A stretch of DNA of 64,000 nt, from the NCBI RefSeq assembly GCF_057098645.1, contig NZ_CM169472.1; one strand, written 5' to 3'. Under the pieces are notes generated by a model. It worked only from the letters and a program-made list of their open reading frames with translations, had not been told where the DNA came from and made no database searches. Positions 3,348 through 60,945 of this stretch are shown here, piece by piece. A program made the translations under genes and the position numbers. The stretch's first letter is position 1; each line of letters begins with the position of its first letter.

Positions 3348-4085
3348 TTAATACTCTTTACCTGTTACACGGCTACGGTAGCTATCCCAGTTGAAGATCA
3401 CCCACAAACTGTTACCCAGGCGCATACGGTCCATCACGCGTTCGCCCAGCAACTTGGTCATCTCTTCCATATTACTATTGGTCAGCATCCCGGTTGGGCG
3501 TTTGGAAGAAGAGCGGCGATCGACGATCTGGTTGATGATCACTTTTTCGTATTTCGATTCGGTCTGCACGCCGATCTCATCGATCACCAGCAGATCAACG
3601 TTGCTCAGATCGTTAAGCAGTTGTTCTTCGCTGGTACCGCTATTCCTGAAGGTATCTTTCATCGCCGACATAATATCGGCCACGGTGATGATCAATACGG
3701 ATTTACCGCGTAGCAGCAGCTCGTTGCAGATTGCCGCCGCCAGATGGTTTTTGCCGGTTCCTGGCTTACCAGAAAAGATAAAGCTGGCGATGTTGCCGTC
3801 AAACTCTTCGACATACTGGCGCGCTTTGCTTAACGCATTCATCTGCCCTTCACACTCAACGCGATAGTTCTCAAAGGAGCAGTTCTGATGCAGTGGACGA
3901 ATACCGGAGCGGTTAAAGGTGCGCTGCATTTTCATCGCCCGATTTTCACGTTCGAGAGCGGCAGAGCGGATCGCCCCTTGTTCTTTTTGCCAGGCCAGTA
4001 GTTCTTCACCCGTTTTGAATGCGGGTTTGATATGGGCAGGCATCATTTTTTGCAGGCGTTGCATCAGGTCGCCAACGTTTTTCAT
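3348..4085 (-). CDS. dnaC: DNA replication protein DnaC (helicase loader)
   Basis: 245-aa ORF with Walker A GKPGTGKNHLAAAI; immediately downstream of dnaT. Confidence 0.92.
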   Translation of the reverse strand: MKNVGDLMQRLQKMMPAHIKPAFKTGEELLAWQKEQGAIRSAALERENRAMKMQRTFNRSGIRPLHQNCSFENYRVECEGQMNALSKARQYVEEFDGNIASFIFSGKPGTGKNHLAAAICNELLLRGKSVLIITVADIMSAMKDTFRNSGTSEEQLLNDLSNVDLLVIDEIGVQTESKYEKVIINQIVDRRSSSKRPTGMLTNSNMEEMTKLLGERVMDRMRLGNSLWVIFNWDSYRSRVTGKEY

Positions 4086-4087
4086 CG

Positions 4088-4627
4088 TTACCCTCTGAAT
4101 CCTGGTGGAATTTGGCTGTCAGGTTCGCTGACCGTATTCACATCTCGTTTCGGCAGTCCGCCGTTGCTGGCACGACCGATTTGCAGGCTGCGCGCCAGTT
4201 TTTGTTGCCACTGCACATGGTGAAAGACTTTACCTTCCGCCTGCCAGTAGGCAATGAATGAGGCCAGTTCTTCGGTGGTCACCGGCTCTCTTAGCGCCAC
4301 GCCCCATAGCGCCGCCAGGCGGATAAAATCGGCATCGGGTTGCCAGTCCGGATACATGGCGAATTTCCCCATGGGTACAGCAACGGGAGCGGCTTGCGGT
4401 TCCTGATAGAGTTGATCGTCCAGATCGACATCGCTTCCCGGACGCGCCAGCTTTTCTTCCAGCGCCAGCAGTTCAGCCAGGCGTGCAGGCGTGACGGCAT
4501 AAAACGCCGGGGCATTGTTAGCAAATACGGCAACCACACCGCCTTCAGCTTTTGCCAGAACGGTTTGGTGATCGTGTACCAGGGCGTCAATACCAACGAC
4601 GTCCGGGGTCAAAACTCTGGAAGACAT
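4088..4627 (-). CDS. dnaT: Primosomal protein DnaT
   Basis: Starts [16 protein letters not shown]... and ends ...[13 protein letters not shown]; the ORF-track start at 4639 looks like an upstream extension. Confidence 0.9.
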
Positions 4628-7313: not shown

Positions 7314-7948
7314 AAAAATGCGTCATGAGTAGTATCGGTATTGAGAGTTTATTCAGAAAGTTTGCGGGTAGCCCTTATAAGCTCCATACCTATACCAGTC
7401 AGGAGTCATTTCAGGATGCCATGTCGCGGATCTCGTTTGCGGCGGTCATTTTTTCTTTTTCTGCCATGAGAAGTGAGCGCAGAGAGGGATTATCTTGCCT
7501 GACTGAACTGGCGATTAAGTTTCCGCGTACCCGGCGTTTAGTTATTGCGGATGATGATATTGAAGCTCGGCTGATTGGTTCATTGTCGCCATCACCGCTG
7601 GACGGTGTATTAAGTAAAGCGTCAACGCTGGAGATTTTTCATCAGGAACTCTTTTTGTCATTAAATGGTGTACGTCAGGCGACCGACCGACTGAACAATC
7701 AGTGGTACATTAACCAAAGCCGGACGCTAAGCCCGACGGAGAGAGAAATATTGCGCTTTATGTCGCGTGGCTACTCAATGACACAAATTGCCGAGCAGCT
7801 TAAACGTAATATCAAAACGATCCGCGCGCATAAATTTAATGTGATGTCGAAACTGGGCGTCAGTTCTGATGCAGGGTTGTTGGAGGCCGCAGATATTCTG
7901 TTATGTATGCGGCATTGCGAAGCAAGTAATGTGTTGCATCCCTATTAA
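7271..7948 (+). CDS. bglJ: LuxR-type transcriptional activator BglJ
   Basis: 225-aa ORF overlapping the yjjQ 3' end, with a C-terminal LuxR HTH ([25 protein letters not shown]...). Confidence 0.88.
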
Positions 7949-7985
7949 TCCGCATGATGCCGGGTTTACTTCCCCGGCAGTGCTT

Positions 7986-8774
7986 TCATTTCAGCGTACA
8001 ATCGCCACATTGCTGCACATCCGGTAAGCGATAACGCTGGCAGCAAGTGCGGCGCACCAGCAGGCCGTCGCGCAGTACCACGGTACGCCAGAGTGGATTA
8101 TCTTCACCGGTAGTAAGCGTTTTCTCAAAAAAGAGGGCATGGCGCAGCGATTCAACCGTCGCCTCGCCGAGCAGTTGCTTCATCTCAGTAAGATACCAGT
8201 TGATCAAATAACCGGTATTACTCCAGATAAGTTTGCCGTTAATCTCTCCCGTTGCTTCTAGTGCCAGCACAACCGGAACCAGCGCCTGGCTGATTAACGT
8301 TTCCATTCGATGCTGCGGCGAATGTGGTGTTACGTTTTTATCTTCACACACATCGACCCAGAAACAGGCGACGCGTCCGGTTTCGTGAAACTCAGCATGG
8401 AAATGTTCCGGCGACACATCTAATGCTTTTTCCTGCGTCAGTAGCGCCAGCATTAATGGTGGTACCATCAGGCCGATATACCACTGCGCCCACAGTGAGA
8501 TCAGCGGTTTGTTCTCGCGGATCATCGTTGGTTGGTTGCGATAGATATGATCGGAATAGACCGCCAGTAGAGAACTTAGAGCATTCGGTGATGACCATTG
8601 CGCCAGCGTCATGGCGTTAAGCGGAGCGGGTTCATCCAGGCGGATAAACTCCAGCAAATGTTCACGATGTTCGGCGATCATCGCCCGTACGGCTTGTGCA
8701 AGCCCAGCATCCTGCGGCTGGAGATGTGTTCGCCAGATGACATCTTCATAGAGCGGTGCGGAACGATAGGCCAT
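7986..8774 (-). CDS. fhuF: Ferric-siderophore reductase FhuF (2Fe-2S)
   Basis: 262-aa ORF ending with the Cys cluster ...RRTCCQRYRLPDVQQCGDCTLK. Confidence 0.88.
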   Translation of the reverse strand: MAYRSAPLYEDVIWRTHLQPQDAGLAQAVRAMIAEHREHLLEFIRLDEPAPLNAMTLAQWSSPNALSSLLAVYSDHIYRNQPTMIRENKPLISLWAQWYIGLMVPPLMLALLTQEKALDVSPEHFHAEFHETGRVACFWVDVCEDKNVTPHSPQHRMETLISQALVPVVLALEATGEINGKLIWSNTGYLINWYLTEMKQLLGEATVESLRHALFFEKTLTTGEDNPLWRTVVLRDGLLVRRTCCQRYRLPDVQQCGDCTLK

Positions 8775-9189: not shown

Positions 9190-9276
9190 TGGTGCGAGGG
9201 GGGGGACTTGAACCCCCACGTCCGTAAGGACACTAACACCTGAAGCTAGCGCGTCTACCAATTCCGCCACCTTCGC
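9190..9276 (-). tRNA. leuV: tRNA-Leu (CAG)
   Basis: 87-nt sequence whose reverse complement is GCGAAGGTGGCGGAATTGGTAGACGCGCTAGCTTCAGGTGTTAGTGTCCTTACGGACGTGGGGGTTCAAGTCCCCCCCCTCGCACCA. Confidence 0.95.
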
Positions 9277-9310
9277 ACAGTCATCTTACTTTTTTTGATA
9301 TCGCCTCGTT

Positions 9311-9397
9311 TGGTGCGAGGGGGGGGACTTGAACCCCCACGTCCGTAAGAACACTAACACCTGAAGCTAGCGCGTCTACCAATTCCGCCACCTTCGC
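9311..9397 (-). tRNA. leuP: tRNA-Leu (CAG), middle copy with one base change in the variable arm
   Basis: Same 87-nt tRNA except gtaagaacact versus gtaaggacact on the plus strand. Confidence 0.93.
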
Positions 9398-9425
9398 CCA
9401 GTGCGAGCAATATCAACGTGGTTTT

Positions 9426-9512
9426 TGGTGCGAGGGGGGGGACTTGAACCCCCACGTCCGTAAGGACACTAACACCTGAAGCTAGCGCGTCTACCAATTC
9501 CGCCACCTTCGC
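9426..9512 (-). tRNA. leuQ: tRNA-Leu (CAG)
   Basis: Third tandem copy, identical to the first. Confidence 0.95.
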
Positions 9513-9629: not shown

Positions 9630-9800
<171 letters not shown>

Positions 9801-20141: not shown

Positions 20142-20816
20142 TTAGGCCTTTATTATGTATCTTCTTGGTTTTCCTGAGAAAATCACTGTACCAATTATAG
20201 AGCAATTACCGTTGATCTTAATGTAAGGTTCAGGCCAGTTTGGGTTTAATGCTTTGAGGTAACGCTGTGTTCCATCTTCTATCAACCGCTTGAAGGTGGT
20301 TTCGCCTGTATCGTGCATCAATGCAATAACGTCGTCACCGTGGCAGGCAGGGACTTCAGGATCAACAAAAATCATGTCTCCCGGGCGGTACTCATCAATC
20401 ATTGAATCACCAATCACCCGCAAGATATAAGTCATTTCGCCACAGGGTACAGGGCAGGGGTAAGTTTCTGCTGTGCTCAAATCAACCTCAGAATAGCCAA
20501 CTTCTTTCCATGCTCCGGCCTGTACCCATGATATGACAGGGACTAACGTTATTTGTTTGTTAGTGATTGAAACATCAGGTTTTTTTGTGATGTTCGTGGT
20601 CTGGTGTTCTTGATCAAGCCATCCGACAGGCAGGTCGAAACATTTTTCGATGTGCCGCGCCATGCTGTCACCGATATTTTTAGTAGCACCATCTCCCATA
20701 AACCTGCTGGTCTGGGTTGGCTCGCGATCAATCATGGTGGCAAAGGAAGAATTCCCGCCAACACCATCTCTCAGTTTTCTGGCGTTAGACCGCCGGATGT
20801 CATGGACTGTTTTCAT
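20142..20816 (-). CDS. cI: CI-like prophage repressor (HTH plus LexA-like S24 peptidase domain)
   Basis: 224 aa; C-terminal S24 region with GDSM motif (VIGDSMIDEYRPGDMIFVDPE); divergent from a cro-like gene. Confidence 0.85.
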   Translation of the reverse strand: MKTVHDIRRSNARKLRDGVGGNSSFATMIDREPTQTSRFMGDGATKNIGDSMARHIEKCFDLPVGWLDQEHQTTNITKKPDVSITNKQITLVPVISWVQAGAWKEVGYSEVDLSTAETYPCPVPCGEMTYILRVIGDSMIDEYRPGDMIFVDPEVPACHGDDVIALMHDTGETTFKRLIEDGTQRYLKALNPNWPEPYIKINGNCSIIGTVIFSGKPRRYIIKA

Positions 20817-20851: not shown

Positions 20852-20906
20852 GTATCTTGAAGGTTCATCTTAATCATGTAATATGTATACCGGAGGTACA
20901 TATTGT

Positions 20907-21107
20907 ATGAAAGCGTATTGGGACTCTTTAACCAAAGAACAGCAGGGCGAGTTGGCCGGAAAAGTTGGCTCAACACCAGGCTATTTACGGCTGGTTTTCA
21001 ATGGTTATAAAAAAGCCAGTTTTGTGCTGGCTAAAAAACTTGAGCAATGCACGTCAGGTGCAATTACGAAATCTGACTTAAGACCGGATATCTATCCGAA
21101 AGATTAA
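20907..21107 (+). CDS. cro: Cro/YdaS-like HTH regulator
   Basis: Small HTH ORF divergent from cI; GGAGG RBS before the ATG at 20907. Confidence 0.7.
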   Translation: MKAYWDSLTKEQQGELAGKVGSTPGYLRLVFNGYKKASFVLAKKLEQCTSGAITKSDLRPDIYPKD

Positions 21108-21138: not shown

Positions 21139-21702
21139 ATGAGGCTAACCGTGGGTAAGCATCACTGGAAAGTAGAAAAACAGCCTGAGTGGTACGTGAA
21201 AGCTGTCAGAAAAACTATCGCGGCGTTGCCGGGGGGGTACGCTGAAGCTGCTGAGTGGCTAGATGTAACAGAGAACGCTTTATTCAACCGCCTTCGTGCA
21301 GATGGCGATCAGATTTTCCCGCTGGGATGGGCAATGATTTTACAGCGCGCGGCTGGCACTCACTACATTGCGGATGCTGTCGCACAGTCTGCTGGTGGGG
21401 TGTTTGTATCGCTTCCTGAAATTGAGGAAGTAGAGAACGCCGATATAAACCAGCGCCTGCTGGAAGTCATCGAACAGATCGGGAGTTACTCAAAGCAGAT
21501 TCGTTCGGCAATCGAAGATGGGGTAGTGGAGCCACACGAGCAGACAGCAATTAATGATGAGTTGTATCTGTCAATTTCGAAGCTCCAGGAGCATGCAGCA
21601 CTGGTCTACAAAATCTTTTGCGCTCCAGAAAAGAGTGACGCCCGCGAGTGTGCAGCTCCGGGCGTCGTGGCGTTTTGTGTCTGTGGAGAAACTAACGCAT
21701 GA
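21139..21702 (+). CDS. CII-like / YdaT-family phage regulatory protein
   Basis: 187-aa ORF directly after cro; assigned by position and general resemblance to prophage CII/CP76-type proteins. Confidence 0.45.
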   Translation: MRLTVGKHHWKVEKQPEWYVKAVRKTIAALPGGYAEAAEWLDVTENALFNRLRADGDQIFPLGWAMILQRAAGTHYIADAVAQSAGGVFVSLPEIEEVENADINQRLLEVIEQIGSYSKQIRSAIEDGVVEPHEQTAINDELYLSISKLQEHAALVYKIFCAPEKSDARECAAPGVVAFCVCGETNA

Positions 21703-22535
21703 ACAGTTTAACGGCAAATAACCGTTTGTCGCAACAGCTGGTGGTCAGCGTCGCTGAACACCTGTTGTTACGGCATGAATGCAGATTACCAAATCACCTG
21801 GCTGTAAGTAACCACAGAGAACTTTACCTGACTGTGGGGGGCGAGTTGTGCAGGAACTTAACCGCTGGTTTCGTGACGGAAGAGGGCTTTATGTCCATGT
21901 TATTCGTTGGGAGCCAGAAACACAGCGCGTTATCTATCTTCGCAAAGACTACCCGCATGAGTGCTTTAGTCCTTTGTGGAAATTCAGGCGTGATTTTGTT
22001 GAGTGTGAAGGACCACCAGCACATTGATTCTGCCATTCCGGGACGTTACACTGTTCAGGCACCTTATAAAGCGGGTGCCGGGATTGGCGTCCTGGAAATG
22101 TTATCGGCGATATATGACGCGCCAGCGTCTTTTTTATCGTCTGCGTCTGTGCACACCCAAATTATGGTGGGCTGGACGGGGGCACCGAAAGGTGCGCCGG
22201 TTTCCGATAACGCCGGTTACGCCAACCCCGTTCAGTTCACCACCAGCGAAATTGGCGTTTCCGGTGGTGAAGGTAATTCACTGTTATCGGAGGCTGCCAT
22301 CATGGCTACTGTCCCAGCCCTCACTCGTCTGAATGATGAAGACTTACATAAACTCAGTTATGTAACAACTGCACTACGTGCTCTGCGCAAGGTAACTCTT
22401 TCGGATCCGCAGGCGCATCAAGTTCTGGTAGAAACCCTTCTTAACTTGCAGGCTGAACGTATTCGTCTGGCGGATAAGGCTAATTTTCATATTCACCGTC
22501 TCCTGAATATCAGCGGAGGGCATCGTCATGCTTAA
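21699..22535 (+). CDS. Hypothetical phage protein (replication-module position)
   Basis: 278-aa ORF translationally coupled between the CII-like and O-like genes; no motif recognised. Confidence 0.5.
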   Translation: MNSLTANNRLSQQLVVSVAEHLLLRHECRLPNHLAVSNHRELYLTVGGELCRNLTAGFVTEEGFMSMLFVGSQKHSALSIFAKTTRMSALVLCGNSGVILLSVKDHQHIDSAIPGRYTVQAPYKAGAGIGVLEMLSAIYDAPASFLSSASVHTQIMVGWTGAPKGAPVSDNAGYANPVQFTTSEIGVSGGEGNSLLSEAAIMATVPALTRLNDEDLHKLSYVTTALRALRKVTLSDPQAHQVLVETLLNLQAERIRLADKANFHIHRLLNISGGHRHA

Positions 22536-22764
22536 TCCGTTGATCCTCAATATTTGCCGTTTGCTTCAGCGTAAAAAAACATCAATTCCTACAGTTGGGC
22601 AGTGGTACACCACACCTGCAGGGCATGTTCTACGTGTTAGCCTGGTTGACCGTGAATGCCAGAAGGTGATTTGTGAACCGCTGGGCCGTAATTACCGCGT
22701 CAGTATGCCGCTTATAGCCTTTCGCTCCGGAAAAAACATGAAGCATCTCGGAGGTGCAGCATGA
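22528..22764 (+). CDS. Hypothetical small phage protein
   Basis: 78-aa ORF with overlapping stop/start coupling to its neighbours. Confidence 0.4.
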   Translation: MLNPLILNICRLLQRKKTSIPTVGQWYTTPAGHVLRVSLVDRECQKVICEPLGRNYRVSMPLIAFRSGKNMKHLGGAA

Positions 22765-23579
22765 GTATGGAGCTGATGGTTAAAGCGATGAAAATTCGAG
22801 TGGGTAATCCATTGCGAAAACTGGTTCTGATCAAGCTGGCTGATAATGCCAGCGATCAGGGTGAGTGCTGGCCCAGCTACCAGCATATTGCTGACCAGTG
22901 CGAGATTAGCAAACGTTCTGTGATGAATCATATTGCGGCCCTTTGTGAGTCCGGGCTGGTAAAAAAAGTCACCCGGAAAGGTGAAAAAGGTAACTCAAGT
23001 AATATCTATCTCCTTCATCTGGATGGTGCAGGAGATTCACTAGGGGGTAGTGCAAATAATTCACTATCTGGTGCAGCAAATTCACCAGGTAGTGCAGGAG
23101 TTGCACCAGGGGGTAGTGCAGGAGATTCACCCAGAACCAGTCACTCTTTTGAACCAGTCAAAGAACCAGTCAATGAACCAATAGCTGTTGGTGCATCAGT
23201 TGATGAGTCCGTGCGAGTTCGTTCAAACCGACCGGAATATTCTCCGGAGTTTGAGCAGGCATGGCTGGCATATCCCAAACGTGCTGGTGGCAATTCAAAA
23301 TCTGCAGCCTTCAAAGCCTGGAAAGCCCGTTTGAATGAGGGGGTAAACCCCGAAACCATGCTGGAAGGTGTGAAACGCTATGCGGGCTGGGTATCTGCGA
23401 TGGGTAACAGCGGCACACAATTTGTGAAACAGGCTGTCACGTTCTTTGGTCCGGATCGTCATTTCGAAGAATCCTGGGAAGTTCCTGCGGTATCTGCAGC
23501 CAGACGTGAGGACCCGTACTTCAAATCCAGTTACGACAACGTGGACTACAGCCAGATCCCGGCAGGATTCAGGGGGTGA
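22761..23579 (+). CDS. Replication initiator (O-like N-terminal HTH) with a DnaT-like C-terminal domain
   Basis: N-terminal HTH (IADQCEISKRSVMNHIAALCESGLV); Gly/Ser-rich linker encoded by repeats; C-terminus ...DYSQIPAGFRG matches host DnaT ...[10 protein letters not shown]. Confidence 0.7.
   Translation: MSMELMVKAMKIRVGNPLRKLVLIKLADNASDQGECWPSYQHIADQCEISKRSVMNHIAALCESGLVKKVTRKGEKGNSSNIYLLHLDGAGDSLGGSANNSLSGAANSPGSAGVAPGGSAGDSPRTSHSFEPVKEPVNEPIAVGASVDESVRVRSNRPEYSPEFEQAWLAYPKRAGGNSKSAAFKAWKARLNEGVNPETMLEGVKRYAGWVSAMGNSGTQFVKQAVTFFGPDRHFEESWEVPAVSAARREDPYFKSSYDNVDYSQIPAGFRG
23034..23190. repeat. Iteron-like direct repeats inside the O-like gene (candidate ori)
   Basis: ggtgcaggagattcac at 23035 and 23126; five gtagtgca/ggtgcag units; three gaaccagtca units at 23145..23182. 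Confidence 0.5.
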
Positions 23580-53755: not shown

Positions 53756-54336
53756 TGGCATTCAGAATGAGTGAACAACCACGGACCATAAAAATTTATA
53801 ATCTGCTGGCCGGAACTAATGAATTTATTGGTGAAGGTGACGCATATATTCCGCCTCATACAGGTCTGCCTGTAAACAGTACCTATATTGCACCGCCAGA
53901 TATTCCGGCTGGTTTCGTGGCTGTTTTCAACAGTGATGAGTCATCGTGGCATCTCGTTGAAGATCATCGGGGTAAAACGGTTTATGACGTGGCTTCCGGC
54001 GACGCGTTATTTATTTCTGAACTCGGTCCGTTACCGGAAAATGTTACCTGGTTATCGCCGGAAGGGGAGTTTCAGAAGTGGAACGGCACAGCCTGGTTGA
54101 AGGATACGGAAGCAGAAAAACTGTTCCGGATCCGGGAGGCGGAAGAAACAAAAAACAACCTGATGCAGGTAGCCAGTGAGCATATTGCGCCGCTTCAGGA
54201 TGCTGCAGATCTGGAAATTGCAACGGAGGAAGAAATCTCGTTGCTGGAAGCATGGAAAAAGTATCGGGTATTGCTGAACCGTGTTGATACATCAACTGCA
54301 CCTGATATTGAGTGGCCAGCAGCACCTGTAGGATAA
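53755..54336 (+). CDS. tfa: Tail fiber assembly protein (Tfa)
   Basis: 193 aa following and coupled to stf; C-terminal ...[23 protein letters not shown]... Confidence 0.85.
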
Positions 54337-60528: not shown

Positions 60529-60945
60529 TTTGCCCTTCGTAGGCAGCATCCGGCAGTCGGCGCATAATGCCTGATGCGACGCTTAACGCGTCTTATCATG
60601 CCTACAGGTTTGTGCCGAACCGTAGGCCGGATAAGGCGTTCACGCCGCATCCGGCAGTTGGCGCACAATGCCTGATGCGACGCTTGTCGCGTCTTATCAT
60701 GCCTACAAGTCTGTGCCGAACCGTAGGCCGGATAAGGCGTTCACGCCGCATCCGGCAGTCGGCGCATAATGCCTGATGCGACGCTTGTCGCGTCTTATCA
60801 TGCCTACAGGTTTGTGCCGAACCGTAGGCCGGATAAGGCGTTCACGCCGCATCCGGCAGTTGGCGCACAATGCCTGATGCGACGCTTGACGCGTCTTATC
60901 AGGCCTACAAGTCTGTGCCGAACCGTAGGCCGTATCCGGCATGTC
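60529..60945. repeat. Tandem REP/BIME array (four ~100-bp units)
   Basis: Four repeats of ...gcctgatgcgacgctt(g/a)(t/a)cgcgtcttatcatgcctaca(g/a)g(t)ttgtgccgaaccgtaggccggataaggcgttcacgccgcatccggcagt(c/t)ggcgca(t/c)aat... Confidence 0.85.

Follow-up and report, generated by a model that had tools for sequence, protein, structure and literature searches.

A 278-codon 'ash family' reading frame in an e14/SfV-like prophage probably spans an antisense-RNA immunity cassette

The stretch of DNA analysed here, referred to as the window, comprises 64,000 nucleotides (nt) of contig NZ_CM169472.1 (NCBI RefSeq assembly GCF_057098645.1) and contains, within an e14/SfV-like lambdoid immunity and replication region, an open reading frame (ORF) of 278 amino acids (aa) at 21699-22535 on the plus strand. 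This ORF is probably a through-reading frame laid over an RNA immunity or checkpoint cassette of the kind known from P4, P1/P7 and Gifsy-1. It holds an RNA switch together with two nested genes and should therefore be regarded as a regulatory cassette and not as a new replication protein. The first-pass annotation of the window had described the ORF as translationally coupled to the upstream CII-like gene, and this description stands: the frame starts with ATG and measures 837 nt, a length far above chance, and its ATG at 21699 forms, with the TGA that ends the CII-like gene ymfL, the overlap ATGA (21699-21702).

An Rfam scan returned two plus-strand matches in the middle third of the ORF, both to the full model and both above the gathering score. 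The upstream match, an IsrK/seqA-like RNA (RF01394; 22059-22135; 63.7 bits against a gathering score of 50), ends in an intrinsic terminator, in which a hairpin at 22116-22129 is followed by six T residues to 22135; a terminator scan agrees. The downstream match is a C4/CI-type antisense RNA (RF01695; 22160-22247; 82.8 bits against 45, model positions 1-87), and a sub-threshold c4-a1b1 match is also given by Rfam here. Two recognition elements are found in the C4 RNA, namely a' (CCGAUAACG, 22204-22212), in the loop of its hairpin 2, and b' (CGCCAA, 22220-22225). The a' element is complementary to the target sites a1 (UGUUAUCGG, 22099-22107), inside the IsrK-like leader, and a2 (UGUUAUCGGAGG, 22282-22293), downstream of the C4 RNA; likewise, b' is complementary to b1 (UUGGCG, 22084-22089) inside the leader and to b2 (UUGGCG, 22252-22257) downstream. 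Site a2 includes GGAGG (22289-22293), the Shine-Dalgarno (SD) sequence of a nested gene, 8 nt before its in-frame ATG at 22302. In the SfV-type cassette, the C4 loop reads CCUUGAUC. A further in-frame ATG (Met156, 22164-22166), at the 5' end of the C4 RNA and fused in frame to the nested gene, would give a product of 123 aa; the AUG at this position belongs to the C4 consensus and is the positional equivalent of the Gifsy-1 orf45 start.

Upstream of the leader lies a putative internal sigma-70 promoter (22024-22052, plus strand), with a -35 element TTGATT (22024-22029), a 17-nt spacer and a -10 element TACACT (22047-22052), from which 6 nt (22053-22058) lead to position 22059, where the IsrK model begins. 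Elements spaced alike occur in locus L089, from a Salmonella contig (TTGATA-17-TACACT, in a different upstream context), in locus L091, in P4 (TTGCCT-18-TATAGT) and in Gifsy-1 (TTGACA-18-TATATT), and the element is a candidate promoter of the type of P4 P_LE and Gifsy-1 P_isrK.

The pairing between these elements is conserved through sequence change. Among 86 loci we found 28 distinct cassettes with 10 loop sequences, P4 included, each accompanied by matching sites at the same two places, and a2 ends 8-10 nt before the nested ATG across all 10 loop types. Over 27 variants, 97.4% of cells were paired, against ~41% when the partners were slid. Compensatory pairs were found at seven of nine positions for a'-a1, at seven of twelve for a'-a2 (a helix with 92.9% of its cells paired) and at four of six for b'-b1, while the C4 RNA's outer stem, of 17 pairs, and its hairpin A, of 5, were paired in 100% of cases, each element with four compensatory pairs. 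The three a-sites and the three b-sites co-vary across the 10 specificity types, and the C4 loops with their targets are, to judge from this comparison of sequences, a functional antisense-RNA specificity system.

Some further features of the cassette concern its distribution and exchange. At least three types of b' occur (CGCCAA, UUUCCAC and UUCUCAC; alignment A3, with loci L005, L052, L089 and P4), each with matching b1 and b2. Locus L052 combines an a' of the mEp460 type with a b' of the P4 type, which suggests that the a' and b' specificity elements may reassort independently. A mosaic boundary is apparent near position 22060 (loci L004-L083): from the ymfL stop to ~22060, 80 viral contigs are 95-100% identical, and 3' of this point identity falls to 23-60% in parts of the cassette and nested gene. 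This sharp boundary indicates, therefore, that recombination exchanges the RNA specificity and the cargo together, as one module. Matches to the cassette DNA were found in 304 phage records, among them Shiga toxin (Stx) phages, Gifsy-1 and APSE, and a few of these records already have the RNAs annotated.

The protein family by which the ORF is named coincides with this RNA region. Residues 117-210 match Pfam PF10554, Phage_ASH (64.7 bits against a cutoff of 26; E 1.2e-17), and the match occupies the same nucleotides as the stretch from IsrK through C4 to the targets. A search of 1.8 billion representative proteins yielded only 221 matches to the ORF, nearly all of which align to the cassette part only, at varied positions in predicted proteins of 50-976 aa. 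When the full ORF was modelled by AlphaFold2 with 80 homologues in the alignment, residues 1-200 received a predicted local distance difference test (pLDDT) score of 28-56; within them, residues 105-195 scored 40-51 and showed no secondary structure. The sole well-predicted stretch was that of residues 205-273 (pLDDT 85-94). Phage_ASH does not behave as a folded protein domain here, and the 'Ash domain' is, as far as the alignments and models indicate, the translation of a conserved RNA cassette.

The situation in P4 bears on the same question. There, Phage_ASH matches the historic 'cI gene product' ORF, which lies over the CI RNA (Rfam C4, 74.9 bits), seqA upstream of the CI RNA is an Rfam isrK match, and epsilon matches another family, PF25738. 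A published survey of P4 satellites used PF10554 as its epsilon marker, and a P4 epsilon-type antirepressor identity, after a paper equating Ash with epsilon, was among the candidates that we excluded. The equation is not borne out, because epsilon belongs to PF25738 and the Ash match falls on the ORF that covers the CI RNA; PF10554 would still tag P4-like elements, for a different reason. In the P4 record (L114; 8168-8584 against 7888-8175, both on the minus strand), PF10554 falls on the old 'cI' ORF and not on epsilon.

These results alter several points of the first-pass annotation. Its statement that the protein has no recognisable motif is contradicted by the Phage_ASH match, and the ORF also matches PHROGs 3960, 4908 (over aa 156-278) and 821. 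The two Rfam RNA genes, an out-of-frame DUF4222 gene and the internal ATG with its SD sequence at 22302 had escaped it. The regulatory factor that it expected at this site is present, its content being mainly RNA (the IsrK/seqA-like leader and the C4/CI-type antisense RNA). Its placement of the ORF as a coupled gene is correct: the ORF lies in the early right operon, just 5' of the replication genes, with a 78-aa frame, ORF78, between it and the initiator gene. Two of its proposals were excluded. As a replication accessory protein, the ORF lacks homology to any replication family in Pfam, PHROG or NCBIfam, and the replication-family signal (HTH_36, DnaD_N and phrog_270) belongs to the next-but-one gene at 22761-23579, the initiator; as a defence factor, it matched no family in PADLOC. 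The remote-homology search that had been advised returned the Pfam and PHROG families but no replication family, and the structure prediction likewise advised, with an alignment of 80 sequences, gave a fold for the last ~70 residues only. Finally, the guess of a host-takeover factor gains some indirect support, from the homology of the 5' part to e14 YmfM, a reported inhibitor of cell division, and from a nested gene in the position of P4 kil and P1 icd.

This nested gene (22302-22535, plus strand; 77 aa), whose GGAGG lies under a2, encodes a predicted two-helix hairpin (AlphaFold2, pLDDT 83). Its homologues, at 25-46% identity, all begin with MATIP. The ratio of non-synonymous to synonymous substitution (dN/dS) is 0.25 at a proportion of synonymous differences (pS) of 0.04, and the gene appears to be under purifying selection as far as this low divergence allows. 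The product had no match in Pfam, NCBIfam or PADLOC, and BLASTP against P4 Kil gave no alignment with E <= 100, the two having only their first residues, MAT, in common. An attempt to read a function from the structure was abandoned, as the model is a generic two-helix hairpin with no informative structural neighbour. The gene sits in the position of P4 kil, Gifsy-1 anrP and P1 icd. In P4 the position is taken by the 65-aa Kil, and in other variants of the locus by a product of 177-185 aa which, at least in L089, carries a Phage_pRha (Rha) domain.

The 5' third of the ORF (21699-22024, plus strand), the start of which is the one coupled to ymfL, is YmfM-like: it shares 33% identity over 99 aa with YmfM of the K-12 prophage e14 (E 4e-9) and matches phrog_1170 (E 1e-10) in the overlapping part only. 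No Pfam family matched the first ~100 residues. In another frame, this segment contains a nested gene of 59 aa with a GTG start (21848-22027, plus strand), which encodes a DUF4222 protein (PF13973, E 9.5e-14, 51.1 bits against a cutoff of 27; phrog_1343, E 1e-36) and is annotated by RefSeq. The position of the DUF4222 start codon is fixed, although the codon itself varies between ATG, GTG and TTG.

For tests of selection on these two frames, the first set of loci gave 80 near-identical upstream regions and was uninformative; divergent loci were added instead, from genera including Salmonella, Citrobacter, Kosakonia, Kluyvera and Enterobacter, giving 27 distinct sequences. Their gene order is repressor, cro, ymfL, a stretch of 145-179 nt, DUF4222 and replication gene, mostly without an Ash region. 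The DUF4222 frame shows a dN/dS of 0.15 at a dS of 1.7, and is for that reason regarded as a real protein gene. In every locus where the position could be examined, a start codon (ATG; GTG in two loci) overlaps the ymfL stop. Between this start and DUF4222, the YmfM frame contains no stop in the 27 sequences, where the two remaining frames have 108 and 77, and its phase is kept through all four spacings observed (149, 167, 176 and 179 nt). Its dN/dS is 0.53, compared with ~0.95 in the other frames. It is also open across DUF4222 in 27 of 27 sequences, although random synonymous recoding of DUF4222 keeps it open only 2-8% of the time. The start, the stops, the phase, the dN/dS and the recoding indicate, therefore, that both frames are maintained and that the 5' part is not a chance extension. 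The YmfM frame's amino acid sequence is only weakly constrained.

Other readings of the 5' part were considered. A purely spurious 5' extension was our initial reading, and was dropped after the frame tests. A -1 frameshift, programmed by the motif G GGG GGC near 21836 and leading out of the YmfM frame into that of DUF4222, was judged by eye and dropped because the motif is not conserved in the diverged loci and because DUF4222 has a conserved start codon of its own. The general Rfam scan gave no oop-like antisense RNA between ymfL and DUF4222, although no dedicated search was made. In L089 (2292-4178), DUF4222 is separated from the RNA cassette by a toxin-antitoxin-like pair (Gp49/HigB-like plus helix-turn-helix) encoded on the opposite strand. 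The YmfM-type frame of that locus is open for 628 codons, antisense through both toxin-antitoxin-like genes and into an Ash-Rha gene, which may reflect chance or selection.

The frame is equally free of stops across the cassette itself. In the 27 cassette variants there are 32 distinct sites of stop triplets, none of which lies in the through-frame (P ~2e-6). From the leader start to the nested ATG the distance is 240, 243, 246 or 327 nt, in each case a multiple of three. All 10 loop types, including P4, have the nested-gene frame stop-free from leader start to ATG, whereas the stop counts summed over types in the other two frames are 24 and 42. These comparisons indicate a long frame that is held open by selection, even though its first ~200 residues are not predicted to fold.

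How such a cassette would operate can be proposed by analogy: the anatomy and the co-variation described above are observed, and the dynamics are borrowed from P4, P1 and Gifsy-1. In a lysogen, a weak internal promoter would make the leader, and most leader transcripts would stop at the intrinsic terminator. A transcript that reads through would be processed to the C4 RNA, which would mask the ribosome-binding site (RBS) of the nested gene and silence it. The RNA, being untranslated, would then be subject to termination (polarity) before transcription reaches the 77-aa gene, ORF78 and the O-like replication gene; by analogy with P4, the last two are the presumed cargo that the cassette would gate. 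After induction, transcripts from pR would carry ribosomes that re-initiate at the ymfL ATGA and translate through the terminator, the C4 RNA and the targets, so that their passage would be insensitive to C4 and the downstream genes would be expressed. On this view an 'Ash' protein fold would play no part, and what would matter is that translation takes place, along with the 77 residues at the C terminus. For P4, the summary given in PMC10111431, citing Forti 1999, describes a constitutive promoter inside eta whose transcript ends early through interactions of CI and seqA; according to the same summary, Kil is a truncated Eta and translation of the long ORF prevents termination.

Several points weigh against this explanation. 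The P4 mechanism is taken second-hand, from the summary in PMC10111431. RNase P processing, the action of the C4 RNA as a repressor, Rho-dependent termination and the prevention of termination by translation are, at this locus, all supposed by analogy. The promoter is a weak match (8/12) read by eye and is absent from the output of the promoter scan, which is silent because the match is of this quality. Foldseek, run with the 77-aa model against the PDB and BFVD, returned nothing significant (best E 0.14). Stop avoidance does not reach significance when only the hypervariable a-sites are considered, as 85% of random recognition sequences would be stop-free there (0.85 per type). Lastly, not every such cassette has the through-frame: in Gifsy-1, orf45 stops at the ATG of anrP and the upstream frame is closed, and a cassette can therefore work without in-frame continuity.

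A broader view extends this explanation to the YmfM-type frame of e14/SfV-like prophages in general. That frame may act as a 'relay', in which coupled translation is selected and not the protein, and which would carry ribosomes across DUF4222 and, where present, across a C4/CI checkpoint that gates the replication genes and exists in 10 or more interchangeable specificities. We put this forward tentatively, as an idea that is possible yet doubtful.

Three rival explanations have to be set beside the RNA cassette. The long frame might be a passive by-product, with only the two RNAs, DUF4222 and the 77-aa gene being functional, and the Gifsy-1 arrangement, with its short orf45 and closed upstream frame, lends itself to this reading, as do the result at the a-sites alone and the fact that RNA conservation over much of the cassette itself limits new stops. 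We nevertheless consider it unlikely: all 32 distinct stop-triplet sites avoid the through-frame, four independent length changes all keep phase, the frame is open across the unrelated DUF4222 gene as well, and P4 eta is reported, in the summary of PMC10111431, to be translated and to prevent termination. A somewhat smaller chance still attaches to the reading that a real Ash-family regulator of 278 aa, be it an antirepressor or a transcription regulator, is made and acts in trans, the RNA genes merely sharing its DNA. The literature gives the domain no known function, and the evidence for such a protein, namely the Pfam Phage_ASH match (E 1e-17), the PHROG labels 'transcriptional regulator' and 'antirepressor', the conserved and open ORF, and the treatment of P4 eta in PMC10111431 as a gene for a protein of the Bro network, must be set against the exact coincidence of the Ash match with the IsrK-C4-target stretch. 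Furthermore, residues 105-195 lack a fold in AlphaFold2 even with 80 homologues, predicted proteins of 50-976 aa carry 'Ash' segments at no fixed place, and the variable positions co-vary as RNA pairs.

The gene model of RefSeq provides the remaining alternative. On a chromosome 99.9% identical in this region, the RefSeq annotation, from the Prokaryotic Genome Annotation Pipeline (PGAP), does not call the 278-aa ORF; it calls the 59-aa DUF4222 protein (21848-22027, in the other frame) and a 181-aa Ash protein from GTG 21990, a model under which the first ~97 codons of the ORF would be untranslated. Members of PHROGs 3960 and 995 begin near aa 103, and in L089 an Ash-Rha gene is called apart from DUF4222, in keeping with that model. 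The 5' part, however, bears signs of translation (a conserved coupled start, no stops, in-phase insertions and deletions, and the dN/dS of 0.53 against ~0.95) and is open over DUF4222 despite the 2-8% expected from synonymous recoding; moreover, a 181-aa protein would still treat RNA genes as protein. That the RefSeq model is right seems to us very improbable. The through-frame over an RNA cassette, as proposed above, is the explanation that we retain.

Annotation at this locus is uneven. The 278-aa protein carries the NCBI/RefSeq name 'ash family protein'; neither RNA gene is annotated by RefSeq at the 99.9% identical locus, and phage records differ in their gene model. The ORF is 98.6% identical to a protein of phage 2H10 and 91.7% identical to SfV orf37, of which it is the counterpart. 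Of 5426 complete E. coli genomes, 3133 contain similar DNA, most of the 2.5-kb query being present in 583 of them; hundreds of E. coli genomes have this ORF, as do phages SfV and 2H10.

The neighbouring genes complete the picture of the region. Upstream lie the S24 repressor gene ymfK (20142-20816, minus strand), a Cro/YdaS-like gene (20883-21107 as longest ORF) and the CII-like ymfL (21139-21702 as longest ORF), the product of which matches Phage_CP76 and the NCBIfam YmfL equivalog (169 bits). The longest ORFs of the last two genes begin earlier than the RefSeq and SfV gene models, which give 201 nt from 20907 and 552 nt from 21151, respectively. Downstream, the TAA of the 278-aa ORF overlaps the ATG of ORF78 (22528-22764, plus strand; 78 aa; phrog_1153), whose stop in turn overlaps the gene for the O-like replication initiator (22761-23579, plus strand). 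ORF78 faintly resembles DUF4222 (hhalign E 0.004, probability 8.6%; PHROG cross-match E 0.008) and may be a distant paralogue of it. Elsewhere in the window, Rfam recognised three tandem tRNA genes, four naRNA4 repeats (resembling repetitive extragenic palindromic elements) and an IS009 element, these matches lying at 9193-9512 (minus strand), 9652-9734, 60625-60905 and 54098-54296.

The overlap of ymfM and DUF4222 also has a bearing on K-12. In its e14 prophage (L003), a DUF4222 ORF of 59 aa with a TTG start (4002-4181) lies in the other frame of ymfM (3823-4161) and is far better conserved than YmfM itself. Inhibition of cell division by e14 YmfM (SfiC) was reported in the ymfM preprint for K-12 ymfM clones only, the ymfM ORF having been cloned in pBAD24. 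The clones used for this assignment also carry 53 of the 59 DUF4222 codons, and no mention of a frame-specific control was found in the preprint text. Which of the two frames underlies the SfiC phenotype may, therefore, not have been settled by these clones; if the relay reading above is right, the SOS-inducible division inhibition assigned to K-12 YmfM could be due wholly or partly to the strongly conserved DUF4222 protein.

Both the components and the arrangement of the cassette are already known, and the cassette is widespread. What seems under-appreciated is that the Ash domain is an RNA cassette, that ymfM and DUF4222 form a dual-coding pair, and that DUF4222 codons are present in the SfiC clones. 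For annotation, this would mean that 'ash family protein' (PF10554), a widely spread name, denotes at this locus a regulatory cassette made of RNA and no folded domain. For phage biology, it would place an antisense checkpoint in the style of P4 and P1, with many co-varying specificities, directly 5' of the replication genes in common lambdoid prophages of E. coli, Shigella and Stx-related kinds; if true, the cassette would add a second, RNA-based layer to the control of immunity and induction.

Among known systems, e14 resembles the window in its synteny (ymfK-ymfT-ymfL-ymfM), its identical ATGA start and its DUF4222 ORF, nested in the same relative frame. It differs in that it has no RNA cassette and its ymfM frame closes 20 nt short of the end of DUF4222, shortly before the replication gene, whereas the YmfM frame of the window runs ~170 codons further. 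The immI region of P1 and P7 (c4, icd and ant; Rfam clan CL00128) likewise contains a C4-family RNA. In both, C4 and its targets belong to one transcript, the a' and b' loops are complementary to flanking sites, the downstream site lies over the RBS of the first gene, and specificity is defined by hypervariable loops, as between P1 and P7. Neither the 278-aa protein nor the 77-aa product has an NCBIfam or Pfam match that would point to homology with P1 Icd or Ant.

The isrK-orf45-anrP system of Salmonella Gifsy-1 (PMC4825925) has homologous isrK and C4 (STnc1160) RNAs, an intrinsic terminator, a read-through mRNA and an a2 site over the downstream SD sequence; in addition, its ORF over the C4 RNA is conserved in nucleotides rather than in amino acids. 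Gifsy-1 differs from the window in having its own strong promoter after antQ, in an orf45 that stops at the anrP ATG (AUGA) and is not fused to it, with the upstream frame closed, and in AnrP, an antirepressor-like protein of ~187 aa where the window has one of 77 aa.

The closest analogue is the immunity region of P4 (P_LE, seqA, CI RNA, seqC and nested eta/kil). P4 is a satellite and not a lambdoid prophage, its cargo is the alpha primase and not an O-like initiator, its isrK-C4 spacer measures 107 nt against 24 nt in the window, and its Kil is unrelated to the helical 77-aa product; the N-terminal part of the frame in the window is, by comparison, YmfM-like with a DUF4222 gene inside. Both nevertheless have a leader with targets (Rfam isrK), a C4-family RNA and downstream targets over the SD sequence of a nested ATG. 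In both, the start of the long ORF is linked to the upstream gene, and a promoter-like motif stands at the same distance from the leader start. P4 also has a 214-aa ORF that crosses seqA, CI and the targets and enters the 65-aa kil without a change of frame, the EAAIMAT junction being shared with the window, and the through-ORF of the window is the analogue of eta.

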